From positions 863,746 through 927,745 of the forward strand of contig JBGLNH010000001.1 in the NCBI GenBank assembly GCA_041320535.1: a stretch of 64,000 nt of DNA. The letters are read 5' to 3'. Under the pieces are notes generated by a model. The model saw only the letters and a program-made list of their open reading frames with translations. It made no database searches and was not told the DNA's origin. The position numbers were made by a program, and so were the translations under genes. The stretch comes from Candidatus Aminicenantes bacterium. GTDB lineage: Bacteria > Acidobacteriota > Aminicenantia > Aminicenantales > Saccharicenantaceae. Below, in pieces: positions 4,807 through 53,940 of the stretch (positions are counted from its first letter, which is position 1; each line of letters starts with the position of its first letter).

Positions 4807-4816
4807 GGCCGGCCTC

Positions 4817-22191: not shown

Positions 22192-22408
22192 GATGTTGTT
22201 CCCTTTCACGGCTTTTTCCCGAAATACCCCTTTGCCCATGATGAAACTATACTGCCGGCTGGGAGGCGGAGTCAACGAGGAGGGCTTAGTCTTTTACACC
22301 GGCTTTACACGGGGGGGGAGTTCGTTTTCCCGCACGAATGCTGGCGTTGACTTGGCCTGAATACGGTGCTATAGGTTGATCCAACACCGCATAATTTGGA
22401 GGGGGGAA

Positions 22409-22951: not shown

Positions 22952-23026
22952 GCGCGACAGGTATCGGGTGTTCATGAGGGCGGGTGTCCGCCCCATTGGG
23001 TGTCAAATTTCAAACAGGGGGTCAAA

Positions 23027-23659: not shown

Positions 23660-23779
23660 CCGCAACCGGGAGCGCCGCAGCATCTCCGCCGTGCCCGGCA
23701 GCGATCACGGCCTTAGCGGCTTGACGGGAAACGTGATCGGCATATGCTTGAACCGGCCCGGGCTGTCAGGGAGGAGCGA

Positions 23780-24673: not shown

Positions 24674-24702
24674 GGCGGAGAGCCCGTCAAACTAAGGCTG
24701 AA

Positions 24703-24760
24703 TCTAGAATACTCTAGATATCTAGAAGTATCTTGACACCTTGATTTCCTGCGCTATCAT
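24703..24760 (+). promoter_or_regulatory. Three tandem TCTAGA palindromic boxes (24703, 24713, 24721) overlapping a TTGACA-N16-TATCAT promoter for the RHH gene
   Basis: The sequence aaTCTAGAatacTCTAGAtaTCTAGAagtatcTTGACAccttgatttcctgcgcTATCATttc lies 45 nt upstream of the ATG at 24803. It resembles the tandem-box operators of ribbon-helix-helix repressors. Confidence 0.45.
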
Positions 24761-24802
24761 TTCAGGTGAGAATCCAGGCGCGCGCGGAGCGTCCATGGGA
24801 GC

Positions 24803-25054
24803 ATGAAGCAGCTTATGAAGAAGATCGGCACTATCATCGACGACGGGCTCCTGGCCGGCATCAAGCAGAGGGCGGCGGCCGAGAGGCGCCCACTCTCCGG
24901 CGTCATCGAGGATGCCCTCAGCGGGTATCTCGGGGAGGACCGGACGACCCGCGCGGACGCTTCGCGGGCCCTGGCCAGATTCACCGCGCAAGCCGGGCTC
25001 CTTCCGATCGAGGAGATCGACGAGATCCTCGAAAAGGACTCTCTCGCGCCATGA
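24803..25054 (+). CDS. Ribbon-helix-helix (CopG/MetJ/Arc-type) DNA-binding protein
   Basis: 83 aa. KKIGTIIDDGLLAGIKQRAAAERRPLSGVIEDALSGYL fits the RHH beta-alpha-alpha fold. Its stop overlaps the start of the methyltransferase (ATGA). Confidence 0.6.
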   Translation: MKQLMKKIGTIIDDGLLAGIKQRAAAERRPLSGVIEDALSGYLGEDRTTRADASRALARFTAQAGLLPIEEIDEILEKDSLAP

Positions 25055-25881
25055 ACGAACGGCCAGGCCCGCTGATCAAACCGGAATTCCCCCGCTCGGC
25101 CAAATACGACCCGGACTGGATGATGGACAACCAGATGGGGCCGAACGCCCTGTGGCTGATGGAGTGGCTGTGCGAGGCGCTGGAGCTCGAGCCCGGCATG
25201 CGCGTCCTGGACCTGGGCTGCGGCAAGGCCATGACCAGCGTCTTCTTGGCTCGCGAATACGGGGCGCAGGTCTACGCGGCGGACCTCTGGATGAGCCCGG
25301 ATCACAATTGGCGGCGGGCGGTCGAGGCCTCGGTCGCCGACCGGGTGTGCCCGATCAAGGCCGAGGCCCACGCGCTTCCCTTCGCGCGGGGGTTCTTCGA
25401 TGCGGTGGTCTCCGTGGACGCCTACCAATACTTCGGCACGGACGAGCTCTACCTCGATTATCTCTCCCGCTTCGTCCGCCCGAACGGCGCGCTGGGCGTC
25501 GTCGTGGTCGGCCTGATGCGGGAGATGGGCGCCAAGCCTCCGGCCCACCTGACCGAGCCGCAGTCGAACGGCAAGGTGTTCTGGGAAAGCTCCTGTCGCA
25601 GCTTCAAAACGGCGGAGTTCTGGCGCGGCCTGTGGTCGGGCAGCCCGATGGCGTCGCGCGTCGCCGCGGTCACGCAGCCGGACGGCTGGCGTCACTGGCG
25701 GGATTTCGAAAGGGCCCTGGAGGCGGAAGGCAAGAATATCTTCCCCTCGGACGCCGAGGCGCTGGACAAGGACCAGGGGAGATACCTGGGCTTCATCCGC
25801 CTGACCGCGCGGCGAACGGACGCCGCCGGAGAAGACCTCTACGATCCCGCCCTGGGAGCCAAGGTGGGCGTGGACAAGTGA
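25051..25881 (+). CDS. Class I SAM-dependent methyltransferase
   Basis: Motif I VLDLGCGKA and overall Rossmann-fold MTase length (276 aa). Substrate unknown. Confidence 0.75.
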   Translation: MNERPGPLIKPEFPRSAKYDPDWMMDNQMGPNALWLMEWLCEALELEPGMRVLDLGCGKAMTSVFLAREYGAQVYAADLWMSPDHNWRRAVEASVADRVCPIKAEAHALPFARGFFDAVVSVDAYQYFGTDELYLDYLSRFVRPNGALGVVVVGLMREMGAKPPAHLTEPQSNGKVFWESSCRSFKTAEFWRGLWSGSPMASRVAAVTQPDGWRHWRDFERALEAEGKNIFPSDAEALDKDQGRYLGFIRLTARRTDAAGEDLYDPALGAKVGVDK

Positions 25882-25972
25882 GGGCCCGCGGCCAAGGTTG
25901 ACACCTCTCTTCCCCCGTACTAACATCGCCCCGTATCGTCATGATCCCCCGATCCCCTTCCGTGAGGTGACC

Positions 25973-27499
25973 ATGAGCATCAGACGCCACGTGGCCGGGG
26001 ACATCCCCCGCCGCACGTTCCTGGAGCTTTCGCTCAAGGGCGGCGCGTTTCTCGCCGCCTCGCCCCTGCTCTTCAAGGCCTGCGCCTCCGGCCAGCCCCC
26101 CGCCGCGCCCGCGCTCGCCCTCTCCGACCTCGACAAGGTCATCGCCCGGGCCCTGGCCCAGGGCGGCGAGTTCGGCGAGGTCTACATCGAGCACCGCGTC
26201 TCCCGCAGCATCCTGCTCGAGGAGGGCAAGTTCAAGAGCGCCGTCTTCGGCATCAGCCAGGGGGCCGGCGTCCGGGTCGTCTCCGGCGACAAGACCGGCT
26301 ACGCCTACACCGACGAGATCAGCCAGGAGAAGCTCCTGCGGGCGGCCGAGGTCGCCTCCTACGTCGCCCGCGGCTCGCGGTCCGCCGCCCCGGTCAGCGT
26401 CAGGGAGGAGAAGCGGCCCTCCTACATCACGGTCGGGGTGCCGCTCCGGGACGTGGCCGACGAGAAGCGGCTCGAGATCATGCGCCGGGCCCACGACGCC
26501 GCGCTCGCCTACGACGGCCGGATCAAGATGGCCTCGATCGACTACTACGACGAGGTCCGCGGCCGGACGATCGCCAACAGCGAGGGCCTCTACCTCACGG
26601 ACGAGCTGCCGCAGATCTTCTTCGTCGTCCAGACGCTCGGCGCCGGAAACGGCACCTCCCACATGGGGCGCGAGCGCCTGGGCCGGCACTCGGGGCTCGA
26701 GATGTTCGACGAGCTCAAGCCCGAGGACGCGGCCAGGGCCGCCGCCCGCGAGTCGGTCGTCATGCTCGACGCCCAGGACGCCCCGGCGGGCCGGATGGAC
26801 GTCGTCATGCAGAACGGCTGGGGCGGGGTCCTCGTCCACGAGGCCGTCGGGCACCCGCTCGAGGGCGACAACATCTCGCGCGAGACGGGCGTCTTCGTCG
26901 GCAAGCTCGGGCAGAAGGTGGCCAGCGAGAAGTTCACCATGGTCGACGACGGCAGCCGGCCCAACGCCCGCGGCACGACGAACTTCGACGACGAGGGGAC
27001 GCAGATGAAGCGCAACGTCCTCATCGAGGACGGGGTGCTCGTCAAGTACATGACCGACATCCTCTCGGCCAAGCAGATCGGGATGGAGCGCACCGGCAAC
27101 GGCCGGCGCGAGAGCTTCCGCTACTTCCCGATCGTGCGCATGACCAACACCTTCATCGAGGCCGGCACGGACAAGCCCGCGGACATCCTGGCTTCGACGC
27201 CGGGCGGGATCTACGTCCAGAGCCTGAGCGGCGGCAGCGTCAATCCGACCGACGGCGTCTTCAACTTCACCTGCCGCGAGGCCTACCTCATCGAGAACGG
27301 GAAGAAGACGGCGCCCGTCAAGGGCGCGACGCTCATCGGCAACTGCCTCGACGTCATCAAGGGCATCGACGCCGTCGGGGACGACCTCGACTTCGGCCCC
27401 GGGATCTGCGGCAAGGGGCAGTCGGCCGAGGTCGACGCCGGCCAGCCCACCGTGCGCATCCGCGGCATCAACGTCGGCGGCTCGCGGGCCAGACGATAG
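25973..27499 (+). CDS. tldD: TldD family metalloprotease (Tat-signal-bearing)
   Basis: Start MSIRRHVAGDIPRRTFLELSLKGGAFLAASPLL (twin-arginine-like), then a TldD/PmbA fold with a HEAVGHPLEGD zinc site. Confidence 0.8.
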   Translation: MSIRRHVAGDIPRRTFLELSLKGGAFLAASPLLFKACASGQPPAAPALALSDLDKVIARALAQGGEFGEVYIEHRVSRSILLEEGKFKSAVFGISQGAGVRVVSGDKTGYAYTDEISQEKLLRAAEVASYVARGSRSAAPVSVREEKRPSYITVGVPLRDVADEKRLEIMRRAHDAALAYDGRIKMASIDYYDEVRGRTIANSEGLYLTDELPQIFFVVQTLGAGNGTSHMGRERLGRHSGLEMFDELKPEDAARAAARESVVMLDAQDAPAGRMDVVMQNGWGGVLVHEAVGHPLEGDNISRETGVFVGKLGQKVASEKFTMVDDGSRPNARGTTNFDDEGTQMKRNVLIEDGVLVKYMTDILSAKQIGMERTGNGRRESFRYFPIVRMTNTFIEAGTDKPADILASTPGGIYVQSLSGGSVNPTDGVFNFTCREAYLIENGKKTAPVKGATLIGNCLDVIKGIDAVGDDLDFGPGICGKGQSAEVDAGQPTVRIRGINVGGSRARR

Positions 27500-42317: not shown

Positions 42318-43889
42318 TCAGTGCTTGTGCAGGTCCTTGTGCATGATCTTGCGGATCTCGTGGAGCCGCTCGTGGGCCGGCAGGTCGGCCAGCTTCCTGT
42401 TCATGAACTCGTCGTTCTCGGCCCGGAGCATGGCCGCGACGTAGTCGACGACGCTCGCCGGGAAGACGCCGTCGCGCTCGTAGTGGGCCCGCTTCTGCAG
42501 CAGGACCCGGCTCGACTCGACGCAGCTCGCCGGCAGGACGGGCAGGCGCTTGAGCAGCTCCTTGTCGGCGAAGATGTTGCCCTTGACGTAGAGGTTGTCG
42601 GCGAGCTCGAGGGGGCCGTACTCCTTGAAGAGGGAAAGGTCGTTGCGGAAGGCCCAATTGGCGGCCATGGCGATTCCGGCCAGGGTCAGATGGATGTTGG
42701 CGCTGCCGTCGGGGCTGCGGATCTCGACGGTCTGGCGGCCGCCGCGCTCGTCGACGTAGGGCGAGGCGTCCTGGGGATTGACCTTCCGGGCCAGGCCCGA
42801 GACGCCCGTCCAGCCGAGCGGCACGCGGATGAGGGCGCTGCGGTTGAGGTCGCTCCAGCAGATCCGGGTCGGCGCCTCCTGGTTCGGGACGAGGCGGAGG
42901 TAGGCCGAGGAGACCGTGTTGCCGAAGGCCGTCAGGGAGTCGGCGTACTCGCAGAGGCCGCCGATGAGCTTGCGGGACTCGATCGAGAGCTTGCCGTCCT
43001 CGGCCCGCATGATGTTGCGGCCGCCCTTGGTCAGCTCGAGGTGGAAGTGGAAGCCGCTGCCGGCGACGCCCTCCTCGAGCTTGGGCGCGAACGTGGCGAC
43101 GGCCCCGTGCCGGTAGGCCGTGTTGCGGATGATCCAGCGGCCGAGGACGAGGGCGTCGGCCATCTCCTCGACGGGCCGGGGCAGGTACTCGATCTCGACC
43201 TGCTCGGCCAGGCGGCCGGCGATCTCGGGCAGGTCGCTGCGGATGCCCTCGATGACGCCGTTCTCGCCGTGGGCGTACTTGACCGCGCCGGTCACGCGGG
43301 CGATGTGACGGAGCATCTCGTGGAGGATCGGGCCGCTCTTGGTGAACGGCGCCGAGCCGTGGTAGCCGCGGAGGTGCTCGACCGGGTAGGTCCCGTCGCC
43401 GGGCGCGGTCAGGAGGAAGAACTCGAGCTCGCCGAGGGCGTTGAGCTCGAGGCCGGCGGCCTTGCGGAACAGCGCCGCGGCCCGGGCCAGGATGGAGTCC
43501 GGGGTGAACGGCGCGGGATTCCCGTCCTGGGCGAGGTAGCGGCAGACGAAGTCGAGGCTGCCCTCGTCGAACGGGTTGAAGAAGGCCGAGGCGTAGCGGG
43601 GGACGACGTAGAGGTCGGAGACGCCCATGTCGACCATGCCCTTGAAGAGCGACGAGCCGTCGACGCGCTCGCCCTCGGCCAGGACCGCCTCGAGGTGGAA
43701 GCGGTCGTTGGCGGGGATGGTCAGCTCCTTGAGCTTGCCGTCGATGGCCGTGTAGTGGAAGGTGAGGCGCTCGACGCCCTGGGCCTCGACGACCTTGAGG
43801 ATGTCGGCCCGGGTGAAGTCGGCGGCCGGCTTGCCGAGGAAGACGGACAGGGGGTTGGACAGGGCCGGAGGAGGGGTCTTCGTCGCCAT
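42318..43889 (-). CDS. Glutamine synthetase family protein (GlnA-like catalytic domain)
   Basis: 523 aa with a GS beta-grasp N-terminal domain and a catalytic domain (GSGFHFHLEL, NRSALIRVP). The precise subfamily (type I vs III-related vs gamma-glutamyl ligase) could not be resolved. Confidence 0.65.
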   Translation of the reverse strand: MATKTPPPALSNPLSVFLGKPAADFTRADILKVVEAQGVERLTFHYTAIDGKLKELTIPANDRFHLEAVLAEGERVDGSSLFKGMVDMGVSDLYVVPRYASAFFNPFDEGSLDFVCRYLAQDGNPAPFTPDSILARAAALFRKAAGLELNALGELEFFLLTAPGDGTYPVEHLRGYHGSAPFTKSGPILHEMLRHIARVTGAVKYAHGENGVIEGIRSDLPEIAGRLAEQVEIEYLPRPVEEMADALVLGRWIIRNTAYRHGAVATFAPKLEEGVAGSGFHFHLELTKGGRNIMRAEDGKLSIESRKLIGGLCEYADSLTAFGNTVSSAYLRLVPNQEAPTRICWSDLNRSALIRVPLGWTGVSGLARKVNPQDASPYVDERGGRQTVEIRSPDGSANIHLTLAGIAMAANWAFRNDLSLFKEYGPLELADNLYVKGNIFADKELLKRLPVLPASCVESSRVLLQKRAHYERDGVFPASVVDYVAAMLRAENDEFMNRKLADLPAHERLHEIRKIMHKDLHKH

Positions 43890-43944
43890 CGCGTCACTCT
43901 CCTTTTCTGATGGTGCCCCGGAAGGGGAAGACCCCTATTTTATC

Positions 43945-44012
43945 AAAAAGAGGGAAAAAGATGGGGTCAGATCTACTTTTTACGCGTTTTTGAGTAAAAA
44001 GTAGATCTGACC
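43945..44012 (-). terminator. Rho-independent terminator: 24-bp perfect-arm hairpin followed by a T-tract (on the minus strand), downstream of the DUF1343 gene
   Basis: AGATGGGGTCAGATCTACTTTTTAC-loop-GTAAAAAGTAGATCTGACCCCATCT. On the minus strand it is followed by TTTTTCCCTCTTTTTGAT. Confidence 0.6.
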
Positions 44013-44021
44013 CCATCTTCT

Positions 44022-45386
44022 CTAATAGAGCAGATAGGGGCGGCGGAGGGCGGCGAAGGCCTGGATGCCCGGCTCGAAGGTCGCCAGGATGGCCTCGACG
44101 CTCGTCCCCGCCTCGAGGGCCCGGCGAACGGACGCGGTGCCCATGACCTGATCGAAATAATCCGCATGGAACTCGAACTTCCCCGGATAGGCGTCTCTGA
44201 CGGCCTTGATGATGTGGAGGGCCGCAGAGAAGGGCCTGAACGCGGCCCGGTCCGTCACGTGGACCTGGCAGCCGCCGCAGAGCTGACCTTGGAACTTGGA
44301 AAAGGACGGAGTGAACCAAGCCTCCCGGAAACGGACGCCCGGCGAATTCAAGCCGTTGAGGATCCTGGTCAGATCGAAACCGTCGATCCAGGGCGCGCCG
44401 AAGAGCTCGAAAGGCTTCGTCGTCCCCCGGCCCTCGGAAAGGTTCGTGCCTTCGATGGCCACCAGGCCCGGGTAGACCGTCGCCGTATCGAGGGTGGGCA
44501 TATTGGGCGACGGGATGACCCAGGGCAAGCCGGTCTCGTCGAACCACATCTCCCGTTTCCATCCCTCCATGGGGACGACGGTCAGCTTGGCCTTACGGGC
44601 GAGGAACTTGTCGTTGAACAGCAGGGCCAGCTCCCCGATGGTCATGGCGTGCCGCTCGGGAACTGGGAAAAGCCCGATGAAGGAGCTGAAACCGGGATAT
44701 TCCAGGATGGGCCCTTCCATGTCCATGCCGTTGACGGGATTCGGCCGGTCGAGGACGATGAACTCGATCCCGTTCTCGGCCGCCGCCTGCATGCTGTAGG
44801 CCATGGTGGCGACATAGGTGTAGACGCGGGTCCCCACGTCCTGGATATCGAAGACCATGACATCGATCCCCTCGACCATGGCCCCCTCGGGGACCTTCCC
44901 CGTCTCCTTTGTGTCAAACGAGCGCATGAACTCGTCGATGTTCTTGAGCATCCCGGGTTCGGGCTTCATCGACTGCCCGTAAAGACTGAAGACCGGAAGA
45001 TTATACTCCGGAATGTTGTACTTGCGGTCGACATAAAAGGGGACATATTGCCCCGCCTGAGCGTCCCCGCGGACCCCGTGCTCGGGGCCATAAAGGGCGA
45101 CGAGCTTGACCGCCGGATTGGCGAAAAGGAGGTCGATCGTCGTCGAGAGGCGCGAGTCCGTGCCCGTGGGATTGGTGATCAGGCCGACCCGCTTCCCCGC
45201 GACGAGGTCGAGCCGCTTCTCCAGGAAGACCTCGACCCCCGGCTTGACCGGGGCCGGGCTCCCCGCCCGGGCCGGCCGTTCTCCCCCGCCGCCGCAGGCG
45301 GCCGCGATCAGGCAGGCCGCCAGGCCGATGACCCAGATGGCCGCCGCGCCCCCTCGTCCGTGCATCTTCGACCGTCCTTTCCCCAC
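44022..45386 (-). CDS. DUF1343 family lipoprotein (NamZ-like exo-beta-N-acetylmuramidase family)
   Basis: Lipobox VIGLAAC. The DUF1343 core (GLITNPTG, LYGPEHG, DIQDVGTRVYTY) is shared with NamZ. Confidence 0.65.
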   Translation of the reverse strand: MGKGRSKMHGRGGAAAIWVIGLAACLIAAACGGGGERPARAGSPAPVKPGVEVFLEKRLDLVAGKRVGLITNPTGTDSRLSTTIDLLFANPAVKLVALYGPEHGVRGDAQAGQYVPFYVDRKYNIPEYNLPVFSLYGQSMKPEPGMLKNIDEFMRSFDTKETGKVPEGAMVEGIDVMVFDIQDVGTRVYTYVATMAYSMQAAAENGIEFIVLDRPNPVNGMDMEGPILEYPGFSSFIGLFPVPERHAMTIGELALLFNDKFLARKAKLTVVPMEGWKREMWFDETGLPWVIPSPNMPTLDTATVYPGLVAIEGTNLSEGRGTTKPFELFGAPWIDGFDLTRILNGLNSPGVRFREAWFTPSFSKFQGQLCGGCQVHVTDRAAFRPFSAALHIIKAVRDAYPGKFEFHADYFDQVMGTASVRRALEAGTSVEAILATFEPGIQAFAALRRPYLLY

Positions 45387-45483: not shown

Positions 45484-47370
45484 ATGTCCCGCCACAGCGA
45501 AGGGTTGCGGAAGCTCCTTCTCCCGCCCCTGCTCTTCGCCCTCCTGCTCTCCGCTCTCGTCTTCGCCGCCCGCCTTCCGCCCCGCGCCGGGGCCGCCGAG
45601 GAGATCCCCTACGCCTGGACGGACGTCGGGCGCGTAGTCGCGGTCGCCGACATCCACGGCGATTACGACCGCTTCGTCTTCATCCTGGCCCATCCGGAGG
45701 TCGGCCTCATCGACCGCGACCTGCGCTGGATCGGCGGCAAGGCCCACTTCGTCCAGCTCGGCGACGTCGCGGACCGGGGGCCTTACGCCCGGAAGATCTT
45801 CGCCCTCCTCATGCGCCTGGAGAAGGAGGCCGAGGCCGCCGGCGGCATGGTCCACACCCTCCTCGGCAACCACGAGGAGATGAACATCACGGGCATCGCG
45901 CTGGACTATCCGCATTACGTCTGGCTCGACCAATTCGTCTCCTTCCTGCCCGACGATTTCCGCAAGGCCCGCGAGGCCCAGTACATCCGCTCCCTGCCCC
46001 CCAGGGAGAGGCGGCGGGCGGAGATCGAGGGCCTGGACATCGAGACGGACGAAGGGCTGCGCGCCTTCTGGCAGCAGGTCCTCGACCGCAAGGACCCCGA
46101 GGCCAGGCAGGCCTACATCCGGGGCTTCAACGACGCCGTGGGATTCTGGCTCCTGCGCAAGAACACGATCATCAAGATCAACGGCGTCGTCTACGTCCAC
46201 GGCGGCATCAACGAGGCCCTGTCCAAGTGGCCTCTGCGCGAGATCAACCAGGTCATGCGCACGGAGCTGGCCTATTTCCAGTCGATCGGCCGCGACCCCC
46301 ATCGGGTCACCCGGGCCTTCAAGCCGAAGCTCGTCTACGACCCGGACGGCCCGCTCTGGTTCCGCGGCCTGGCCGAGGACAAGAGGACGGTCCAGGCCCA
46401 GGTCGACAGGATCCTGGCCAACATGGACGCCAAGGCCATGGTCGTCGGGCACAACTATTTCAGTTATCCCGGCGGCCGCAGCCAGATCCTCTCCAGGGAG
46501 ATGGTGGCCCGCTTCGAGGACAAGGTCTGGATCATGGACACGGGCATCGCCGCAGGGAGCTACGGAGGCGTCCCGTCGGCCTTGATCCACGAGCGCGGCG
46601 AGTTCCGGGTCTGGGGCGAGACCGAGGAAGTGGCCGAGCAGCTCGGCATCAAGCCCCCCGCCCCCAAGCCCATGACGCGGCGGGAGATCGAGACCTTCCT
46701 CCGGACGGCCTCGATCGTCGGCCGCGGCCCCGGGCCCGGCGGCCGGACCGAGGCCTGGAAGCTGACCCTGGAATCCCAGGGCGCGGTCCTCGAGGCCCTC
46801 TTCAAGTACATCGACCGGCGCCGGCCCGATCCGCTCGCCGACAGCTACCGCTACGAGCTGGCCGCCTATTCCCTCGACAAGTACCTCGACCTCGGCTTCG
46901 TGCCCCCGGTCGTCGAGCGCGTTGTCGAGGGCATCAACGGGGCCGTGCAGCTTTTCGTCGAGAACGCCATGTCCGAAGCGGAGCGCAAGGCGAACAGCGT
47001 CGCGCCCGCCGACGCCGAGGCCTTCGACAGGGCCATGGCCGACCTGCTCGTCCTCCAGAGCCTGGCCTACGACGACTGCCGCAACGACCGCGACACCCTG
47101 ATCAGCCGCGACACCGGCCGGGTCTACCGGGTCGATTTCTCCGAGGCCTTCGCGCCGGTCAAGCACGAGCCGACCCGCTGCCCCGTCCTGCGCTGCTCCC
47201 GCCTTCTCTACAAGAAGCTCCAGAGCTGGAACGACAAAGTGGCCGCCGAGTACCTGGGCCGTTTCCTCGACCCGTCCGAGACCGCCGCGCTCAACGCCCG
47301 GCGTCGCGAGGTCCTGCGGGAGATCCAGCTGCGGATCAAGATGGCCGGCGAGCGCAACGTCCTGTTCTGA
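45484..47370 (+). CDS. Secreted fusion protein: PPP-family metallophosphoesterase domain plus C-terminal PI3/PI4-kinase-like (PI4K type II-like) domain
   Basis: Signal peptide LLLPPLLFALLLSALVFAA. PPP motifs DIHGD, LGDVADRG, GNHE, VHGG. The C-terminal ~230 aa are paralogous to the gene at 48934 and carry a kinase-like catalytic loop CRNDRDTLISRDTGRVYRVDFSEAF. Confidence 0.65.
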   Translation: MSRHSEGLRKLLLPPLLFALLLSALVFAARLPPRAGAAEEIPYAWTDVGRVVAVADIHGDYDRFVFILAHPEVGLIDRDLRWIGGKAHFVQLGDVADRGPYARKIFALLMRLEKEAEAAGGMVHTLLGNHEEMNITGIALDYPHYVWLDQFVSFLPDDFRKAREAQYIRSLPPRERRRAEIEGLDIETDEGLRAFWQQVLDRKDPEARQAYIRGFNDAVGFWLLRKNTIIKINGVVYVHGGINEALSKWPLREINQVMRTELAYFQSIGRDPHRVTRAFKPKLVYDPDGPLWFRGLAEDKRTVQAQVDRILANMDAKAMVVGHNYFSYPGGRSQILSREMVARFEDKVWIMDTGIAAGSYGGVPSALIHERGEFRVWGETEEVAEQLGIKPPAPKPMTRREIETFLRTASIVGRGPGPGGRTEAWKLTLESQGAVLEALFKYIDRRRPDPLADSYRYELAAYSLDKYLDLGFVPPVVERVVEGINGAVQLFVENAMSEAERKANSVAPADAEAFDRAMADLLVLQSLAYDDCRNDRDTLISRDTGRVYRVDFSEAFAPVKHEPTRCPVLRCSRLLYKKLQSWNDKVAAEYLGRFLDPSETAALNARRREVLREIQLRIKMAGERNVLF

Positions 47371-47392
47371 CGGAGAGGGAAGGAGCCGAGCG

Positions 47393-48874
47393 ATGTCCCG
47401 ACCCTCCGAAGCGCCTCCCCCCGGCGGAGGCCGGACGCGCTATCCCCTCGGCTACCGGGCCCTGCGCCTGTTCGCCGACATCAGAGAGGGCGAGGCGCCC
47501 AAGGCGCTCCTGCTGGCCCTCAACGTCTTCCTCCTGCTCCTGGCCTACTACATCCTCAAGCCCCTGCGGGAGTCGCTCCTCCTCGTCGACAAGGACTCCG
47601 CGGCCGTCAAAAGCTACCTGAGCGGGGCCCAGGCCGTTCTCTTCGTCTTCGTCATCAAGGCCTTCAGCCGGCTGGCCTCCAAGGTCCCCCGGCACGTCCT
47701 CATCTCCTGGACGACGCTGTTCTTCATCTCCAACCTCGTCCTCTTCTACGTCCTCCACGCCGGAGGCATGGCCGTCAAGCCCATGGGCATCCTGTTCTTC
47801 ATCTGGATCGGCATCTTCAACTATTTCGTCATCGCCCAGTTCTGGGGCTTCGCCAACGACCTCTACGCCGAGGACGTCGGCAAGCGGACCTTCCCCCTCG
47901 TCGCCCTGGGCGCGACTCTCGGCGGCCTCGTCGCCACCCTGCCCTTCATGAAAAAGCTCCGCGACCTCCTGGGCGGGAACTGGCAGTTCCTGCTCATGCT
48001 CATCGCCGGCGTCATCCTCGGCCTCTGCATCGTCCTGGCCCGCTTCATCCACCGGCGGGACGTTCGGAAGGCCCGCGAGGAGCGGGCCCAGGGGCCGGAC
48101 GAGGCCGCCCCGGCCGTCTGCGTCCGCGAACAGCCCCTCAAGGCCGGAGGGGGCTTCCGGCTCGTCTTCAAGAGCCGCTACCTGCTCCTCATCGCGCTCA
48201 TGATCGGGCTCTACAACGTCGTCAACGCGACCGGCGAGTACATCTTCACCGCCAAAGCGGTCGAGGAATCCATCAACGCCCAGGCGCCGCCCCCGGAGGT
48301 CCGGAGGGGCGACGGCCTGCCGGCCGTGAGCGCGTCGCCGTCGCTGCCGGCGCGGACGGAGAGCCGCGAGATCCACAGCGCCTTCATGGACTACCAGTTC
48401 CTGACCAACCTCATCGCCCTGCTCATCCAGCTCTTCCTCGTCTCGCGGATATTCAAGTGGGTCGGCGTCGGCGGGGCCCTCCTCTTCCTGCCGCTCATCG
48501 CGCTCGGCGGCTACGCCCTGATTTCCTTCGGGGCCGTCTACGCCCTCGTGCGGGGGGTCAAGGCCCTCGAGAACGGCACGGACTACTCCCTGCAGAACAC
48601 GACCAAGGCCGCCCTGTTCCTGGTCACCAAGCGCGAGGAGAAATACAAGGCCAAAGCGGCCATCGACACCTTCTTCGTGCGGGGCGGCGACACGCTCTCC
48701 GCCCTGGCCGTGTTCGTCGGCGTCACGCTGCTCGGCCTGCCCATCGAGCGCTACGCCCTGCTCAATGTCGCCGTCGTCCTCGTCCTGCTCGTGATCTGCT
48801 TCCGGATCATCAGGGCCTACAAAAGGCGCAAGGCGGCCCTCGACGCGACGGCGGAAGCCGGGCCGGCGGCTTGA
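47393..48874 (+). CDS. TLC (ATP/ADP translocase, Npt) family nucleotide transporter
   Basis: 493 aa, 12 TM. The N-terminal LLLALNVFLLLLAYYILKPLRESLL and FWGFANDLYAEDVGKRTFPLVALG match the conserved TLC-family segments (compare Rickettsia Tlc FWQFANQI...KRFY). Confidence 0.7.
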   Translation: MSRPSEAPPPGGGRTRYPLGYRALRLFADIREGEAPKALLLALNVFLLLLAYYILKPLRESLLLVDKDSAAVKSYLSGAQAVLFVFVIKAFSRLASKVPRHVLISWTTLFFISNLVLFYVLHAGGMAVKPMGILFFIWIGIFNYFVIAQFWGFANDLYAEDVGKRTFPLVALGATLGGLVATLPFMKKLRDLLGGNWQFLLMLIAGVILGLCIVLARFIHRRDVRKAREERAQGPDEAAPAVCVREQPLKAGGGFRLVFKSRYLLLIALMIGLYNVVNATGEYIFTAKAVEESINAQAPPPEVRRGDGLPAVSASPSLPARTESREIHSAFMDYQFLTNLIALLIQLFLVSRIFKWVGVGGALLFLPLIALGGYALISFGAVYALVRGVKALENGTDYSLQNTTKAALFLVTKREEKYKAKAAIDTFFVRGGDTLSALAVFVGVTLLGLPIERYALLNVAVVLVLLVICFRIIRAYKRRKAALDATAEAGPAA

Positions 48875-48933
48875 ATTCGGGCGCCGGAGGGGGTATGATT
48901 TTCGAGATGCGTCCGACCGAGCGGAGGGGACCC

Positions 48934-49770
48934 ATGAAGCGCAGCGCGGCCCTGGTCCTTCTGGCCTCTGTCCTGGCCCTCGCCCTCCCGAAAGCCGAGG
49001 CCCAGTTCCGGCCCGAGGAGATCGCCCGGCGCGAGGCCGACGAGCGGTTCCTCCTGGCGGCCGAGATCGTCCGGTCCGAGCCCATCGGCGAGGGCGTGAC
49101 CAAGCCCTGGAAGCTCTTCCTCAAGCTGGGCGACGCCGAAGGCAAAGCCGCCTGGAAAGACCCCCACGGCATGCAGGGGGGGTATCTCGAGGGCTGGCAG
49201 TACGAGATCGCCGCCTACCGCCTCGACAAGCTCATGGGGCTGAACATGGTCCCCCCGGCCGTCGAGAGGGAGTTCCAGGGGAAGCGTGGGGCGCTCGTCC
49301 TCTGGGCCGAGAACAAGTACAGCCTCCTCAAGGTCGTCGAGGAGGGGATCGAGATCCCCAAGGAGGCCCTCGAACACACCGAGAAGATGAAGTACCTCGC
49401 CCGGGCCTGGGACAGCCTCATCGCCAACGAGGACCGGACCCAGCAGAACGTCCTCTACACCGAGGACTGGAGGATGATCCTGTTCGACCACTCCCGGGCC
49501 TTCCGCTCGGGCCTCGAATTCACCCGGAAGCTGATGTTCGGGCACAACGGGATCAAGCTCTCCCAGCAGGGCACGCCCTATCTCTTCCGCCGCCTGCCGC
49601 GCTGGTTCGTCGAAAAGGCCGGGGCCCTGACCTACGAGAGCATCGAGGCGGCCGTCGGCGACACGCTTACGGCGAAGGAGATCAAGGCCATCCTGGCCCG
49701 GCGTGAGCTCCTGTTGAAGGAGATCTCGGACATGGTTGCGAAGTCGGGCCGGGAAGCGGTCATCTATTGA
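48934..49770 (+). CDS. Secreted PI3/PI4-kinase-like (PI4K type II-like) domain protein
   Basis: Signal peptide MKRSAALVLLASVLALALPKAEA. GGYLEGWQYEIAAYRLDKLMGLNMVPP and LIANEDRTQQNVLY...ILFDHSRAF parallel the PI4KII G-loop and DRxxxN...D(F/H)G catalytic/activation motifs. Paralogous to the C-terminus of 45484..47370. Confidence 0.6.
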   Translation: MKRSAALVLLASVLALALPKAEAQFRPEEIARREADERFLLAAEIVRSEPIGEGVTKPWKLFLKLGDAEGKAAWKDPHGMQGGYLEGWQYEIAAYRLDKLMGLNMVPPAVEREFQGKRGALVLWAENKYSLLKVVEEGIEIPKEALEHTEKMKYLARAWDSLIANEDRTQQNVLYTEDWRMILFDHSRAFRSGLEFTRKLMFGHNGIKLSQQGTPYLFRRLPRWFVEKAGALTYESIEAAVGDTLTAKEIKAILARRELLLKEISDMVAKSGREAVIY

Positions 49771-49810: not shown

Positions 49811-50992
49811 TCAGGGACGAACGGAGGGACCGATGAAAAGACGGCGCGTGGGGTTGGCCCTGGTCCTGAGCCTGCCGTTGGCCGCGGGGCTTCTCCTGGC
49901 CTGCGTCGACCCGGACGGGCCGCCGGCGGGGACGCCCGGCCCGGGCAGGACGGCCTCGGACACGTCGCCGAGCTGCAGCCGGATGTGCAGGGTCTGGCCG
50001 CGACGGAGGTCGGCCGGCGCCTGGCCGACGAAGTCGAAGTCGACCTCGAAGCGGTTGTCGCGGACGGCCGGGAAGACCCGCCGGACCTTGAGCTCGTAGG
50101 ATCGGCCGGCCAGGTCGAACTCGCCCTTCAGCCCGGCCTCGACCCGGGTGATGTAATGTTCGTCGATGAGGGCCCTGACGCTGTAGGCGTCCAGGACGTC
50201 GATCTGCCCGATGTTCGAGCCCGGGGCCTTGAAAACGCCGATCTCGGCGTCGAGCAGGGTCAGCTGGCCCGCGATCGGGGCCCGGATGACGAGGTCGTCC
50301 AGCTTCTGCTTGGACGTGCGCAGGTTGGTGTCCATGCGGCGGAGCTGTTCCCCGAGGGACAGGAGCTGCTCCTCGCGATATTCCAGCTCCTTCCTCTGGC
50401 TCTCGGCCACGATGTCCCGGTTGCGGAGCTGGTACTCGTAGTCGAGCCGTATGCGCTCGAACTCGAGGTCCGAGACGAGCCGGTTCTCGTGGAGCTTCCG
50501 GTAGCGCTCGTAGGTCGTCTTCTGCTTGGCCAGCTCGTTCTCGACCTGGTTCATGGCCTGCAGGAGCGACTGGCGGTACTGCTCCATGTTCAGCCGCGTC
50601 TGGCGGAGGGCGTTGCTCTGCTGGACGAAGTCGGCCTCGCGCCACATGATGTCGAGGAGGAGGTTGGTATTGACGAGCTGGGCGATCGGGTCGCCGGCCT
50701 TGACCATGGCCCCGGCCTCGAGGAAGCGCTTCTCGACCCGGCCGCCCTCGGTCGTCTCCAGCGAATAGCGCATGATGGGCATGACCGTGCCCTGCTGGGG
50801 GATGAACTCCAGGAAAGGCCCCCGGCTCACCGTGGACACGGTGATGCGCTCGGTGTCGACGTTCAGCGTGGATTCGTTGAACTGGAAAAGAAAGAGGTAG
50901 AGGACGCCGAGAACGAAGACGGCCGCGCCGGCCACGGCGGCGATCTTGCGCGGCGGCCATTTCTTCTTCTCGATCTTTCGGTCCATGCCCAT
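49811..50992 (-). CDS. HlyD-family membrane fusion protein (efflux adaptor)
   Basis: Start MGMDRKIEKKKW with a TM anchor, long coiled-coil (LNMEQYRQSLLQAMNQVENELAKQKTTYERYRKL...) and beta-barrel/lipoyl-like regions. The ~45-aa low-complexity C-terminal tail is unusual. Confidence 0.75.
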   Translation of the reverse strand: MGMDRKIEKKKWPPRKIAAVAGAAVFVLGVLYLFLFQFNESTLNVDTERITVSTVSRGPFLEFIPQQGTVMPIMRYSLETTEGGRVEKRFLEAGAMVKAGDPIAQLVNTNLLLDIMWREADFVQQSNALRQTRLNMEQYRQSLLQAMNQVENELAKQKTTYERYRKLHENRLVSDLEFERIRLDYEYQLRNRDIVAESQRKELEYREEQLLSLGEQLRRMDTNLRTSKQKLDDLVIRAPIAGQLTLLDAEIGVFKAPGSNIGQIDVLDAYSVRALIDEHYITRVEAGLKGEFDLAGRSYELKVRRVFPAVRDNRFEVDFDFVGQAPADLRRGQTLHIRLQLGDVSEAVLPGPGVPAGGPSGSTQARRSPAANGRLRTRANPTRRLFIGPSVRP

Positions 50993-51185
50993 GTCCGTTC
51001 TCCCGGAGCGGCGGCGCTCGTTATCTTCGCCGATTCTCAATGCACGAACCGTGCCAAAACAGAAGCGTCCCTTACCGCTAGGCTCGACTTCGATCCGGTC
51101 TTCGAGGTGTCCGACCTCATGACAAGAAGTGTTCGCTATCGGACACTTGTTGTATAATACCTGCGGGCCGACAGGCATACCCTCG

Positions 51186-51201
51186 GGGCATGGAACTTGC
51201 A
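51186..51201 (+). promoter_or_regulatory. Sigma-54 promoter GGCATGGAACTTGCA (-24 GG / -12 GC) about 27 nt upstream of the NtrC-type regulator gene
   Basis: Matches TGGCAC-N5-TTGCA with one mismatch in the -24 element and correct spacing. An 8-bp inverted repeat GTGTCCGA...TCGGACAC (51106-51147) lies further upstream. Confidence 0.5.
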
Positions 51202-51227
51202 CATACAGTCCCCGAAAGGAGCCGGCG

Positions 51228-52607
51228 ATGGACAGTAAAAGCGGCAAGATCCTCGTGGTCGACGACAACGAGGACATTCTCGCGGCGGCCAAGCTCCTCC
51301 TCAAGCAACACATCGATCTCGTCCACACGGAAAAGGACCCCGGCCGCATCCCCGTCCTGATGAAGGAGGAGACCTACGACGTCGTCCTCCTCGACATGAA
51401 CTTCGCCAAGGGAGCGACGGGCGGCGAGGAGGGTTTCGCCTGGCTGCGCCGGATCCTGGCCGCCGATCCCCTGGCCGTGGTCATCCTCATCACGGCCTAC
51501 GGCGACGTCGGCATGGCCGTCCGGGCCATCAAGGAAGGGGCCACGGACTTCATCCTCAAACCCTGGCAGAACGAGAAGCTCCTGGCCACCCTGTCGGCCG
51601 CCCTCAACCTGCGCGCCTCGCGCGTCGAGGCCAGCTCGCTCCGCCAGCGGCAGGGCCACCTCAGCGCCGACCTCGACCGGCCCTTCCGCGATTTCCTGGG
51701 CCGGAGCGCGGCCATGAACGACGTCTTCGCCACCATCGACAAGGTGGCCCGGACCGACGCCAGCATCCTCATCCTGGGCGAGAACGGGACGGGCAAGGAG
51801 CTGGCCGCCCGGGAGATCCACCGCCGCTCCCAGCGCCACCGGGAGGCCTTCGTCGGCGTCGACATGAGCGCCGTGCCGGAGACGCTCTTCGAGAGCGAGC
51901 TTTTCGGCCACGTCAAGGGCGCCTTCACCGACGCCCGCGAGGACCGGGCCGGCCGCTTCGAGACGGCCTCGGGGGGGACGCTCTTCCTCGACGAGATCGG
52001 CAACCTGTCGCTGCCGCTCCAAGCCAAGATCCTGACGGCGCTCGAGAACCGGCGGATCGTCCGGATCGGGTCGAACCGTCAGGTGGCCATCGACGTCCGG
52101 CTCATCTGCGCGACCAACAGGCCCGTCCACCAGATGGTCGCCGAGAACAGGTTCCGCCAGGACCTCCTCTACCGGATCAACACGATCGAGGTCCGCATGC
52201 CGCCGCTCCGCGAGCGCCGGGAGGACGTCCCGCTCCTCGTCGAGCACTTCCTCGCCGCCTACTGCCACAAGTACGGCCGCCCGCTCAAGACGGCCGTGCC
52301 GGCGGCCCTGTTCAAGCTCGGGGGCTACGCCTGGCCGGGCAACGTCCGCGAGCTCCAGCACGCCGTCGAGCGGGCCGTCATCATGTCCGACGCCGACGCC
52401 CTCGAGCCCGGCGATTTCCTCCTCGGCGAAGCCGATGGCCCCCCGGCCGAGTCCCCGACGGCCGCGGCCACCAGCCTCGGGGACCTCGAGCGGCGGCACG
52501 TCGAGCGCACCTTGAACAAGCACGGCGGGAACGTCAGCAAGGCCGCGCGCGAGCTGGGCATCTCGCGGGCCGCCCTCTACCGCCGCCTGGATAAGCATGG
52601 TCTATAG
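51228..52607 (+). CDS. Sigma-54-dependent response regulator (NtrC family: REC-AAA+-HTH)
   Basis: REC domain (ILVVDDNEDIL...DVVLLDMNF), AAA+ with GENGTGKE Walker A, GAFTDA sigma-54 contact motif, ESELFGH, and a C-terminal Fis-type HTH. Confidence 0.9.
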   Translation: MDSKSGKILVVDDNEDILAAAKLLLKQHIDLVHTEKDPGRIPVLMKEETYDVVLLDMNFAKGATGGEEGFAWLRRILAADPLAVVILITAYGDVGMAVRAIKEGATDFILKPWQNEKLLATLSAALNLRASRVEASSLRQRQGHLSADLDRPFRDFLGRSAAMNDVFATIDKVARTDASILILGENGTGKELAAREIHRRSQRHREAFVGVDMSAVPETLFESELFGHVKGAFTDAREDRAGRFETASGGTLFLDEIGNLSLPLQAKILTALENRRIVRIGSNRQVAIDVRLICATNRPVHQMVAENRFRQDLLYRINTIEVRMPPLRERREDVPLLVEHFLAAYCHKYGRPLKTAVPAALFKLGGYAWPGNVRELQHAVERAVIMSDADALEPGDFLLGEADGPPAESPTAAATSLGDLERRHVERTLNKHGGNVSKAARELGISRAALYRRLDKHGL

Positions 52608-53940
52608 GAAGTTCCGGGTCGACGTCTCCCTGCGCGCGGCGCTGCTCGTCGCGACGATCGGCCTCCTCTTCTTCGTCGTCTTCCGGGCCAAGCTCCCGGC
52701 CGCCGCCATCCTTCTCGGGCTGCTGGCCGCGGCCCAGGTCGCCGGCCTCTTCCGGGCCGTCGACCGGACCAACAGGGACCTGGCCCGGTTCTTCGATTCC
52801 GTGCGCTTCGACGACTTCACCCAGACGTTCCGGAGCCAGAGGCTCGGCGGCTCCTTCAACGAGCTCCACGCCGCGCTGGCCCGGGTCATCGCGGCCTTCC
52901 GCGCCGCCCGGGCCGACAAAGAGGAGCAGGCCCTCTATCTCCAGACCGTCGTCCAGCACGTCGGGATCGGCCTCATCGTCTTCCAGCCCGACGGCGAGAT
53001 CGAGCTCGTCAACAACGCCGCCCAGCGGCTCCTCAGGATCCCGCCCCTCAAGAGCGTCAAGGACCTCGAGGAGACCTGTCCCGGCCTGGCGGCGACGCTC
53101 CTGCGGCTGAAGCCGCGCGACCGCGAGCTCATCAAGGTCGAGGCCGGCGACGACCAGCTCCATCTGCTGCTCCACGCCGCCGCGTTCAAGCAGCGGGGCC
53201 GGGACCTGACGCTGGTCTCGGTCCAGGACATCCGCGGCGAGCTCGAGGAGCGGGAGATCGAGGCCTGGCAGAAGCTCATCCGCGTCCTGACCCACGAGAT
53301 CATGAATTCCATGACCCCCATCTCCTCCCTGGCGACGACGGTCGAGGGCCTGATCGACAAGGGCTGCGCCTCGTCCGGGCCGGAGAACCTCGCCGACATC
53401 CGCGGCGCCCTGAAGACGATCCAGCGGCGAAGCGAAGGCCTCCTCCACTTCGTCGACGGCTACCGGAACCTGGCCCGGGTGCCCAAGCCCGACCTCAAGT
53501 TCTTCCCGGCCGCCGACCTCTTCGCCCAGGTCGCCCAGCTCCTCCGGCCCAGGCTCGACGAATGCGGCGTCCGGCTGGAGACCGCCTCGAGCCCCGCTCG
53601 GCTCGAGGTCCTGGCCGATCCGGCGCTGCTCGAACAGGTCCTCATCAACCTCGTCCTCAACGCCTGCGAGGCCGTCCGCGGCCTGGACCGGCCGCGCGTC
53701 GAGCTCGCCGCCAGCCTCGACGAGCGCGGCCGGCCGGTCATCCAGGTCCGCGACAACGGCAGGGGCATCGCTCCGGAGAACCTGGACAAGATCTTCGTCC
53801 CCTTCTTCTCGACCAAGGAGGGCGGCTCCGGCATCGGCCTCAGCCTGTCGCGTCAGATCATGCGCCTCCACGGCGGCTCGATCAGCGCGGCCTCCAGGCC
53901 CGGCCACGAGACCGTCTTCACCCTTCGCTTCAAGCACTGA
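52597..53940 (+). CDS. Sensor histidine kinase (membrane-bound HisKA plus HATPase_c)
   Basis: Two N-terminal TM segments, the H-box LTHEIMNSMTPI, and N/G boxes (DNGRGIAPENLDKIFVPFFSTKEGGSGIGLS). Overlaps the regulator stop. Confidence 0.85.
   Translation: MVYRKFRVDVSLRAALLVATIGLLFFVVFRAKLPAAAILLGLLAAAQVAGLFRAVDRTNRDLARFFDSVRFDDFTQTFRSQRLGGSFNELHAALARVIAAFRAARADKEEQALYLQTVVQHVGIGLIVFQPDGEIELVNNAAQRLLRIPPLKSVKDLEETCPGLAATLLRLKPRDRELIKVEAGDDQLHLLLHAAAFKQRGRDLTLVSVQDIRGELEEREIEAWQKLIRVLTHEIMNSMTPISSLATTVEGLIDKGCASSGPENLADIRGALKTIQRRSEGLLHFVDGYRNLARVPKPDLKFFPAADLFAQVAQLLRPRLDECGVRLETASSPARLEVLADPALLEQVLINLVLNACEAVRGLDRPRVELAASLDERGRPVIQVRDNGRGIAPENLDKIFVPFFSTKEGGSGIGLSLSRQIMRLHGGSISAASRPGHETVFTLRFKH

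Follow-up and report, generated by a model that had tools for sequence, protein, structure and literature searches.

We propose that a three-gene cluster in an uncultured sediment bacterium of the Aminicenantes encodes a phosphorylation/dephosphorylation cycle that runs in the periplasm and is coupled to the cytoplasmic pool of nucleotides and phosphate by a carrier of the TLC family, a reading to which we assign a probability of roughly 40%. The components of this module are well supported, and its mechanism and ATP cargo are what we infer. Recurrence of the trio in unrelated bacteria tentatively suggests an extracytoplasmic phosphorylation system not described before. The first-pass annotation had not recognized the arrangement as a described system, and our non-exhaustive survey of the literature on bacterial Fam20-like and periplasmic kinases agrees with it, having returned no account of this kinase family or of a kinase–phosphatase–TLC arrangement.

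Organization of the cluster

Positions refer to the window, the whole 64,000-nucleotide stretch of DNA that was analyzed, and the features discussed are as follows.

g1, 45484..47370, + strand: 628 aa; predicted exported protein with a Shewanella-type PPP phosphatase and a Fam20/PI4KII-like kinase-fold domain
g1 signal peptide, 45484..45597, + strand: predicted, aa ~1-29 or 1-38
g1 phosphatase domain, 45607..46638, + strand: aa ~42-385, with the full PPP metal-binding/catalytic motif set
g1 kinase-like domain, 46663..47367, + strand: aa 394-628; g3 paralogue with a non-canonical catalytic loop
g2, 47393..48874, + strand: 493 aa; divergent TLC/NTT-family inner-membrane transporter with ~11-12 TM segments and no HEAT domain
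g3, 48934..49770, + strand: 278 aa; predicted exported stand-alone Fam20/PI4KII-like kinase
g3 Sec signal peptide, 48934..49002, + strand: predicted, N-terminal hydrophobic segment, MKRSAALVLLASVLALALPKAEA followed by Q (..ALPKAEA/Q)
g4 stub, 49833..49946, + strand: lipoprotein signal peptide alone (MKRRRVGLALVLSLPLAAGLLLAC...)

The three open reading frames have exactly the boundaries first noted, and the tight same-strand spacing that had been described is real, with gaps of 22 nt between g1 and g2 and 59 nt between g2 and g3. Because this short, same-strand spacing is operon-like, we read g1–g2–g3 as an operon. An alternative ATG start for g3 at 48895 would give a protein of 291 aa. A single hydrophobic segment lies at the N terminus of both g1 and g3, ahead of an A-x-A site, as judged from hydrophobicity rather than by a dedicated signal-peptide predictor; in g1 this segment is the sole one in the protein (aa 11-29) and precedes ..RAGA/AEE. 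A segment equivalent to that of g3 is present in 40 of 40 diverse members of the kinase family. These features support predicted export signals on g1 and g3, and on g4 in sister genomes.

In related genomes g4 is a full-length kinase paralogue with a lipoprotein signal (lipobox). When g4 of one such locus (L007) was used as a tblastn query against the window, it matched g3 and g1 and nothing else. In two sister assemblies the contig ends fall exactly at the position of the g4 stub.

g3 and its relationship to Fam20 and PI4KII

The bilobal kinase fold of the Fam20/PI4KII/HipA branch is recognized in g3 together with a full catalytic set, comprising the β3 lysine K75 (AAWK), an acidic αC partner (E86/E91), the loop Asp and Asn within N165-x-D167-R-x-x-x-N172 (loop DRTQQN), and the metal-binding Asp of D185-H-S. 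Catalytic residues of this type are near-invariant across 40 diverse family members, and 101 occurrences of the NxDRxxxN motif were counted among 150 representatives. Comparisons of sequence and structure support g3 as a Fam20/PI4KII-branch kinase whose active site is complete. The first-pass annotation had staked its reading on the kinase-like domains matching some kinase-fold family, and that reading survived the searches. The family is large, comprising at least 1,863 clusters when grouped at 50% identity, and nearly all of its members are annotated as "hypothetical" or merely as "metallophosphoesterase".

Because the profile scores stay below their thresholds and the family-specific features are missing, we keep the g3 family apart from both Fam20 proper and PI4KII. 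The Fam20C model (PF06702) gave no match to g3 at E<=1; it reached E<0.1 in 15 of the 40 family members, and no single-domain match examined attained the cut-off, which the tandem protein P0269 alone passes (29.4 bits against 26.8). Likewise, the PI3_PI4_kinase model (PF00454) gave no match to g3, and its best hit in the family, at E 4e-7, lies under the gathering threshold. The bacterial family is 17-21% identical to the Fam20 kinases (the Golgi casein kinase Fam20C, the xylosylkinase Fam20B and the pseudokinase Fam20A), which are regarded as metazoan- or eukaryote-specific (PMC9758233). Unlike these, the bacterial proteins are ~250 aa long, lack the N-terminal extension, insertions and disulfides, carry a DR-x-x-x-N loop in place of DRHHYE, and are often fused to, or encoded beside, a PPP phosphatase. 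Membership of g3 in Fam20 proper was rejected on its sub-threshold scores, on DRTQQN rather than DRHHYE, and on its complete lack of Cys. A type II PI4K was rejected as well, since PF00454 scores are sub-threshold and a protein with zero Cys residues has no counterpart of the palmitoylated, Cys-rich CCPCC insertion of PI4KIIα/β; in addition, g3 is predicted to be exported, whereas PI4KII is cytosolic and membrane-associated. CtkA of H. pylori, HipA and CotH are farther from the bacterial family than Fam20 and PI4KII are, HipA and CotH belonging to the cytoplasm or mother cell, and neither a PPP phosphatase nor a TLC carrier accompanies any of the three.

The phosphatase–kinase fusion protein g1

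The assignment of g1 to the PPP-family metallophosphoesterases was confirmed by a match to Pfam Metallophos (E 1.7e-8) and by the presence of every PPP motif, namely DIHGD (56-60), GDVADRG (93), GNHE (128), HGG (239) and GH (322), whose residues are invariant across 37 orthologues. The GDxHG / GDxxDRG / GNH[ED] signature, the downstream His ligands and homology to SLP proteins place it among the Shewanella-like (Shelph) phosphatases. The nearest solved structure to the phosphatase domain is a protein-tyrosine phosphatase, the cold-active enzyme of PDB entries 1v73/2z72 (E 3e-32), from which g1 differs by its additional C-terminal kinase-fold domain and by the TLC carrier gene nearby; Ap4A hydrolases such as ApaH are also among its structural neighbors.

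Over its C-terminal ~235 aa, g1 is 29% identical to g3 (BLASTP, E 1e-17), a paralogy that at the sequence level is far beyond chance. The description of g3 as a stand-alone paralogue of this domain holds, and its secretion is predicted from the N-terminal hydrophobic segment; it has the DRTQQN and DHS motifs. The first-pass annotation had further described g1 as a phosphatase fused to a kinase-like domain with a DRxxxN catalytic loop; the fusion stands, but the motif is absent from the kinase-like domain, and the only DRxxxN of g1 (residue 308) sits in the phosphatase domain. The loop of the kinase-like domain reads YDDCRNDRD, with D530-D531-C532 invariant, so that the catalytic Asp is replaced by an invariant Cys532 and the loop Asn by Asp; Lys or Arg occupies the β3 position, and VDFSEAF is retained. 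Lacking the catalytic-residue set of the Fam20/PI4KII/HipA branch, this domain is likely to be either a pseudokinase or an enzyme whose chemistry has changed. Taken together, comparisons of sequence and structure support g1 as a Shewanella-type PPP phosphatase that looks active and is fused to a degenerate version of the g3 kinase fold.

g2, a divergent TLC/NTT-family carrier

The first description of g2 as a TLC/Npt-family transporter of ~12 TM segments was correct, the protein being a true but divergent homologue. It scores 60.8 bits against Pfam TLC (PF03219; cut-off 21, E 1.4e-16), and a profile of 16 g2 orthologues aligns over nearly its full length (profile positions 23-462) with the NTT structure 9j3n at E 9.6e-15, the E values against NTT structures being 9.6e-15 and 4e-8. 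Together with ~11-12 hydrophobic segments and the FWGFAN and K-x-K-AAID motifs, these scores liken g2 to PamNTT1 and AtNTT1 and support a divergent TLC/NTT carrier of the inner membrane. In contrast to the NTT-HEAT proteins, g2 lacks a HEAT domain, and it falls far under the NCBIfam cut-off for NTP/NDP exchangers (TIGR00769, 56 bits against 387), which leaves it outside that equivalog.

ATP/ADP translocases share a charged tetrad, K155, E245, E385 and K527 in AtNTT1 numbering (PMC4256464, PMC3306366). We mapped these residues from HMMER alignments onto AtNTT1 numbering using the cryo-EM structures 9j3j/9j3n, where adding 84 to the chain numbering brings E245 as well as K527 onto conserved motifs. 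E245 aligns with the near-invariant G140 of g2 and K527 (RFGKS) with the invariant D433 (RGGD), and K155 and E385 are ambiguous, with KSYL and GEY lying <=3 residues from the aligned positions. Two of the four residues are thus replaced, and a canonical ATP/ADP translocase was rejected because the tetrad is not conserved. The same pattern extends to related carriers: kinase-linked TLC-HEAT proteins have Asp at the K527 position, RFGD is found in the TLC-HEAT protein of L092 and the g2-type protein of L090, and the g2/TLC-HEAT set has Gly, Ile or Val at E245. In AtNTT1 the K527E mutant loses ATP binding and keeps ADP binding, and the NTT1 cycle involves ADP, ATP and one Pi (PMC3306366). As g2 lacks the NTP-binding lysine, its cargo may not be free ATP.

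In a scavenging role, the phosphatase and the kinase-fold proteins, once exported, would bind and process nucleotides or phosphoesters from outside, and the TLC protein would import the product, as parasite NTTs import nucleotides. Every characterized NTT is an importer (PMC5381601, PMC1951785), an alkaline phosphatase adjoins the module at L090, and the Ap4A hydrolases among the structural neighbors of the g1 phosphatase would suit such a role. Scavenging, however, does not require a kinase active site that is intact and under strong conservation, an extracellular kinase would lack an obvious donor from which to make nucleotides for import, and g2 lacks the NTP-binding residues of NTTs, so that we consider this role distinctly unlikely. 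Import of host ATP is no option for g2, since its organism is free-living.

Conservation and recurrence of the module

Co-occurrence of the three genes in other genomes, on which the first-pass annotation had also made its reading depend, was found both within the Aminicenantes and, rearranged, in several other lineages. Among 63 loci of Aminicenantes species representatives, the order g1–g2–g3 plus the g4 kinase paralogue is conserved in 52, the phosphatase–kinase fusion is present in 60, and a TLC gene lies between g1 and g3 in 52. The g4 gene stands directly 3' of g3 at 73 of 76 related loci. Across the Aminicenantes loci, identity drops as low as 39% in the phosphatase domain, 27% in the TLC protein and 54% in g3.

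Just downstream, Aminicenantes have a second TLC-HEAT gene within a STAS / SpoIIE(FHA-GAF) / HATPase_c_2 cluster. A second TLC-like match on the opposite strand was found at 40 of the 57 loci with >=6.5 kb downstream of g3.

Outside the Aminicenantes, kinase, phosphatase and TLC genes recur in unrelated lineages with other gene orders and as split genes. A kinase–phosphatase–TLC/HEAT arrangement occurs at L092, L093, L098-L100 and L106, a phosphatase–kinase fusion with TLC-HEAT at L169, a kinase with TLC-HEAT at L110, and a fusion convergent with a g2-type TLC gene (37% identity) at L090; a planctomycete-like contig (L171) combines TLC-HEAT-cNBD, Metallophos and kinase, and L172 has TLC-HEAT, cNBD, Metallophos and a tandem kinase. 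No TLC gene was found within 7 kb at L087 (a Chromatiales fusion), at L088, or at most of the stand-alone kinases of L111-L168. The taxonomic breadth of the module was established through look-ups of clusters and contigs and a single metagenome scan; a protein search with the profile of 40 diverse members returned almost only Aminicenantes paralogues and no wider taxonomy. At the level of sequence, these loci support a recurrent link of kinase to phosphatase, fused or adjacent, and to TLC-type carriers in several unrelated lineages. The TLC protein outside the Aminicenantes is often of the NTT-HEAT(-cNBD) type, and the kinase-linked carriers of other lineages have exactly the NTT-HEAT and NTT-HEAT-cNBD architectures of Major et al. 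2017, which are widespread in free-living bacteria with their function undescribed (PMC5381601).

This recurrence bears on whether the genes are coupled at all. Synteny can be inherited within one class, and some kinase-family members have no TLC neighbor, so the genes could be neighbors by lineage history, with g2 an unrelated MFS-like transporter. The trio, however, recurs in at least four other contexts that differ in order, orientation and fusion state, and TLC genes are seldom found in free-living bacteria (PMC5381601), which makes uncoupled genes highly improbable, the least probable of the readings weighed here.

Neighboring genes differ by lineage, with LigD at L092 and an alkaline phosphatase at L090, and among the loci compared no conserved neighbor of the module points to a substrate. 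By analogy with Fam20B, a xylose kinase, and PI4KII, a lipid kinase, g3 and g4 might phosphorylate a glycan or lipid of the envelope, with the PPP phosphatase trimming or recycling phosphate and the TLC protein moving a donor or modified precursor other than ATP/ADP. We hold this to be unlikely, given that cell-wall neighbors are not kept across lineages and that the nearest solved relative of the phosphatase acts on protein tyrosine.

The TLC-HEAT-cNBD architectures that adjoin kinase and phosphatase at L171 and L172 could instead point to signaling, in which the TLC(-HEAT/-cNBD) protein is a transceptor whose state the periplasmic kinase and phosphatase would set and HEAT, cNMP-binding or partner-switching proteins would read out on the cytoplasmic side. 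The downstream TLC-HEAT gene of the Aminicenantes, in its STAS/SpoIIE/HATPase_c_2 setting, and the frequent opposite-strand TLC-like match would fit such a role. Against it, g2 has neither HEAT nor cNBD domain, a periplasmic kinase would still require a phosphoryl donor, and TLC proteins have no known precedent as receptors; a signaling role is accordingly very unlikely.

Proposed phosphorylation cycle and its implications

In the phosphorylation cycle that we favor, the exported kinase would phosphorylate an envelope or secreted substrate, be it protein, glycan or lipid, and the g1 phosphatase would remove the phosphate so placed. The degenerate kinase domain of g1 may act as a pseudokinase module that binds substrate or partner, in the way that Fam20A serves Fam20C. 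The TLC carrier would swap the phosphoryl donor, a nucleotide, for spent products and so link the cycle to the cytoplasm; the canonical NTT exchange of ATP against ADP + Pi would be the exact net outcome of one kinase and one phosphatase step. In the eukaryotic ER and Golgi lumen, ATP/ADP exchangers of the AXER/SLC35B1 type supply the ATP that feeds secretory kinases. The shared logic is that an extracytoplasmic kinase needs a carrier bringing nucleotide in and taking products out; the carrier families are unrelated, and the likeness is an analogy only.

The idea of a kinase, phosphatase and ATP-supply module had already been raised in the first pass, and its components and their co-occurrence hold. 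As a functional idea it is weakened or modified by the Asp that replaces the NTP-binding Lys in g2 and the kinase-linked TLC proteins, by their loss of E245, by kinase-family members with no TLC gene nearby, and by the degenerate appearance of the g1 kinase-like domain. Any ATP in the periplasm of a diderm could also escape through porins. Against an export role, the one well-studied bacterial NTT kinetically favors ATP import (PMC1951785).

If the module works as proposed, it would give the secretory-pathway kinase system of eukaryotes its first bacterial counterpart and would place energy-dependent phosphorylation beyond the bacterial cytoplasm, in a compartment usually assumed to be ATP-free. 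It would also set a large, mostly unannotated family beside Fam20, which is medically important and thought to be eukaryote-specific, and would give a testable role to the NTT-HEAT(-cNBD) transporters, whose function has been open since they were cataloged (PMC5381601). A wider claim, which we judge somewhat unlikely, is that many free-living bacteria run a nucleotide-fueled phosphorylation cycle in the periplasm or at the surface, with Sec-exported sister kinases of Fam20, possibly its source, and NTT-HEAT(-cNBD) proteins exporting the donor in exchange for spent nucleotide and phosphate; if true, it would overturn the view of a bacterial periplasm devoid of nucleotide-dependent phosphorylation. 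Should the mechanism prove wrong, biochemistry would still have a well-defined target in the conserved triad of kinase, phosphatase and carrier. An energy-harvesting reversal of the kinase reaction was considered separately and rejected on our own reasoning that phospho-Ser and sugar esters are too low in energy.

Gene arrangement

Within the window, which has a G+C content of about 68%, open reading frames on the + strand bear out the three adjacent, co-directional genes proposed by the first-pass annotation:

45484-47370, + strand: g1, 628 aa, a predicted exported protein with a phosphatase and a C-terminal kinase-like domain
47393-48874, + strand: g2, 493 aa, a TLC/NTT-family transporter
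48934-49770, + strand: g3, 278 aa, a stand-alone kinase, predicted to be exported

The intergenic gaps are 22 nt (g1-g2) and 59 nt (g2-g3), and a terminator scan between the three genes gave no convincing candidate. Identical copies of g1-g3 are held by the NCBI assemblies GCA_041304285.1 and GCA_041304165.1, and nearly all close relatives are labeled Aminicenantes or Aminicenantia. Divergent from g1 is a gene for NamZ, an exo-β-N-acetylmuramidase (44022-45386, - strand), followed by a 523-aa glutamine-synthetase-family gene and a URO-D-like gene (together 42318-45386, - strand); all six of the close relatives inspected share this gene order, which other lineages do not keep. A separate segment, 22001-26000, has a G+C fraction of 0.59-0.63 against 0.66-0.74 in the rest of the window and may be foreign or otherwise unusual.

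The kinase family and its degenerate copy in g1

On its own, g3 gave only sub-threshold hints: FAM198 and HipA_2 in Pfam, and TIGR03843 in NCBIfam (E 3e-8). HMMER, run exhaustively against 1.84 billion representatives, recovered a large family, with 1,863 clusters passing E≤1e-3 and 939 passing E≤1e-10. Forty diverse members sharing 29-54% identity with g3 were aligned; all 40 carry a hydrophobic N-terminal signal, and the lysine of AxWK, D/E-x4-E-[IV]-AAY, N-x-D-R-x-x-x-N and I-D-H-S-R-A-F are near-invariant. The profile of these members matched solved structures of FAM20A (E 1.2e-13), FAM20B (2.3e-10) and FAM20C (1e-9 to 7e-9), as well as C. elegans Fam20 (1.9e-8) and PI4KIIα/β (about 1e-5), with the Fam20 and PI4KII matches spanning the αC motif (AEIAAFHLDR..VPP), the catalytic loop (FDFLIGNxDRHHYE) and the metal-binding LDNxxxF. 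In scans of single members, 25 of the 40 touched PI3_PI4_kinase, 23 HipA_2 and 15 Fam20C, none of the matches examined in single-domain members reaching the family cut-off; the top Foldseek match was PI4KIIβ. Profile and structure searches thus uphold the kinase fold, and the earlier label "PI4KII-like" was right in kind, with Fam20 at least as close. Membership of Fam20 proper or PI4KII proper was rejected because thresholds were unmet and family-specific features are absent from g3, namely DRHHYE, the insertions, the disulfides and the CCPCC loop; g3 contains no cysteine. Tandem members of 671 aa (locus L172, 6001-8016; protein P0269) contain two complete kinase domains, each with NDDRNxGN and [IV]DHTRAF, and are the only architecture to reach the Pfam Fam20C threshold.

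In g1 a phosphatase is joined to a degenerate copy of this fold, and the DRxxxN motif previously ascribed to its kinase-like domain does not occur there. Because Metallophos-kinase fusions of other phyla retain canonical NxDRxxxN and IDHSRAF, the degeneration is specific to the Aminicenantes g1 lineage. By analogy with Fam20A and Fam20C, a pseudokinase partner is a reasonable guess for this domain. It also carries three invariant or near-invariant cysteines, C532, C566 and C571 (window 47033-47196 region), of which C532 occupies the catalytic-loop position and C566 and C571 (RCPVLRC) might be linked by a disulfide in the periplasm.

A non-canonical TLC carrier

The proposed TLC-family identity of g2 is confirmed by Pfam TLC (60.8 bits, cut-off 21) and by a 16-orthologue profile that matched the solved NTT 9j3n over nearly its full length (E 9.6e-15) and AtNTT1 (E 4e-8), with the hallmark FWGFAN and K-x-K-AAID motifs common to g2 and NTTs. 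The NCBIfam exchanger model scored only 56 bits (cut-off 387); g2 is a genuine TLC protein, though a non-canonical one. NTTs conserve four charged residues of functional importance, K155, E245, E385 and K527; both the binding and the transport of NTP depend on K527, and in K527E ATP binding is lost while ADP binding is retained (PMC4256464; PMC3306366). Residues were mapped through HMMER alignments, in which chain numbering + 84 puts E245 and K527 on conserved motifs. E245 aligns to the near-invariant G140 of g2 and K527 (R-F-G-K-S) to the invariant D433 (R-G-G-D), while K155 and E385 fall at ambiguous positions. R-F-G-D also occurs in the TLC-HEAT protein of L092, a soil-metagenome locus, and in the g2-type protein of locus L090. 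Given these replacements, carriers linked to the g3 family are unlikely to handle ATP canonically. The L090 protein (4324-5949, - strand) bears a C-terminal He_PIG (Ig-like) domain after its last TM segment.

Conservation and recurrence

The sample comprised 80 species-representative Aminicenantes loci with g3 54-79% identical. The genes co-occur in other genomes, with the phosphatase-kinase fusion upstream of g3 in 60 and the TLC gene between them in 52 of the 63 loci with at least 4.5 kb upstream, and the trio is found rearranged in other lineages. Chromatiales contain the Metallophos-kinase fusion. A soil-metagenome lineage (L092 and five similar loci) has the parts as a split operon in the order kinase - Metallophos - TLC-HEAT, in which stop and start codons overlap; Pfam confirmed the TLC, HEAT_2 and Metallophos assignments. 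Other loci carry a fusion followed by a 923-aa TLC-HEAT (L169), a kinase followed by a 904-aa TLC-HEAT (L110), a fusion convergent with a g2-type TLC 37% identical to g2 and adjoined by an alkaline phosphatase (L090), or TLC-HEAT, cNBD, Metallophos and a tandem kinase (L172), and a planctomycete-like contig holds TLC-HEAT-cNBD, Metallophos and kinase together. An HMM scan placed a TLC ORF beside the kinase in 17/86 non-Aminicenantes loci, a raw count that includes many short contigs. Exceptions exist: in L087, in L088 and for most stand-alone kinases of one subclade, the available sequence shows neither partner. TLC genes are sparse in free-living bacteria (PMC5381601), and the recurrences, as raw counts, indicate an association conserved well beyond shared ancestry.

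Proposed function

Sequence and structure comparisons support a module of two or three kinase-fold proteins, of which one or more has the full active site, a PPP phosphatase whose active site is likewise complete, and a TLC carrier in the inner membrane, encoded by genes co-transcribed or adjacent in several lineages; signal sequences predict export of the kinase-fold proteins and the phosphatase. The kinase and phosphatase would cycle phosphate on and off an extracytoplasmic substrate, while the carrier would swap phosphoryl donor for spent products. One step of each would net ATP -> ADP + Pi, and ADP + Pi for ATP are class I NTT counter-substrates, with one Pi per cycle (PMC3306366). We give this coupled cycle a probability of roughly 40%, with ATP export its less certain step, in view of three points against ATP as cargo: the Asp at K527 in g2, the import bias of PamNTT1 (PMC1951785) and the existence of modules without TLC. 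Rival readings are a glycan or lipid kinase, scavenging, a TLC transceptor, and no functional coupling among the three genes. The first-pass observation stands save for one motif detail, and its idea of kinase, phosphatase and ATP supply is partly supported: the parts and their association are well established, the proposed mechanism is plausible, and D433 at the K527 position speaks against a canonical ATP carrier.

The NTT diversity survey describes NTT-HEAT and NTT-HEAT-cNBD proteins as widespread and of unknown function, mentioning no kinase, and phosphatase only in the HEAT name and PP2A scaffold PR65, not as a neighboring gene (PMC5381601). No description of the g3 family or the triad was found in the searchable literature, itself incomplete, within which the triad is undescribed as a bacterial system. 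Its assembly resembles that of the secretory-kinase system of eukaryotes; what is new are the bacterial families inside known superfamilies and their combination.

Downstream region

Directly downstream of g3, 73 of the 76 Aminicenantes loci with at least 1 kb there encode g4, a lipoprotein paralogue about 45% identical to g3. In the window, g4 is cut down to its lipoprotein signal peptide (49833-49946, + strand), and an opposite-strand HlyD-family ORF (49811-51349, - strand) has a nonsense-looking tail beyond about 49945, so that a single junction seems to cut both short. In both sister assemblies that carry identical g1-g3, the contig stops exactly at this junction, with the last three bases different. 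Either sequence has truly been deleted or rearranged here, or the 2.43-Mb source contig is misjoined. Relatives within Aminicenantes encode an 851-aa TLC-HEAT protein 4-5 kb downstream of g4, and 40/57 loci with at least 6.5 kb downstream of g3 have a second TLC-like match. This TLC-HEAT sits within a partner-switching cluster (STAS, FHA-GAF-SpoIIE phosphatase, HATPase_c_2 anti-sigma kinase; L003, 9683-14786, also L004 and L006) that is absent from the window. Beyond the junction (51129-53940, + strand), two ORFs resemble, judged by their translations, a response regulator of the sigma-54 type (receiver, AAA+ with GAFTDA, HTH) and a histidine kinase.
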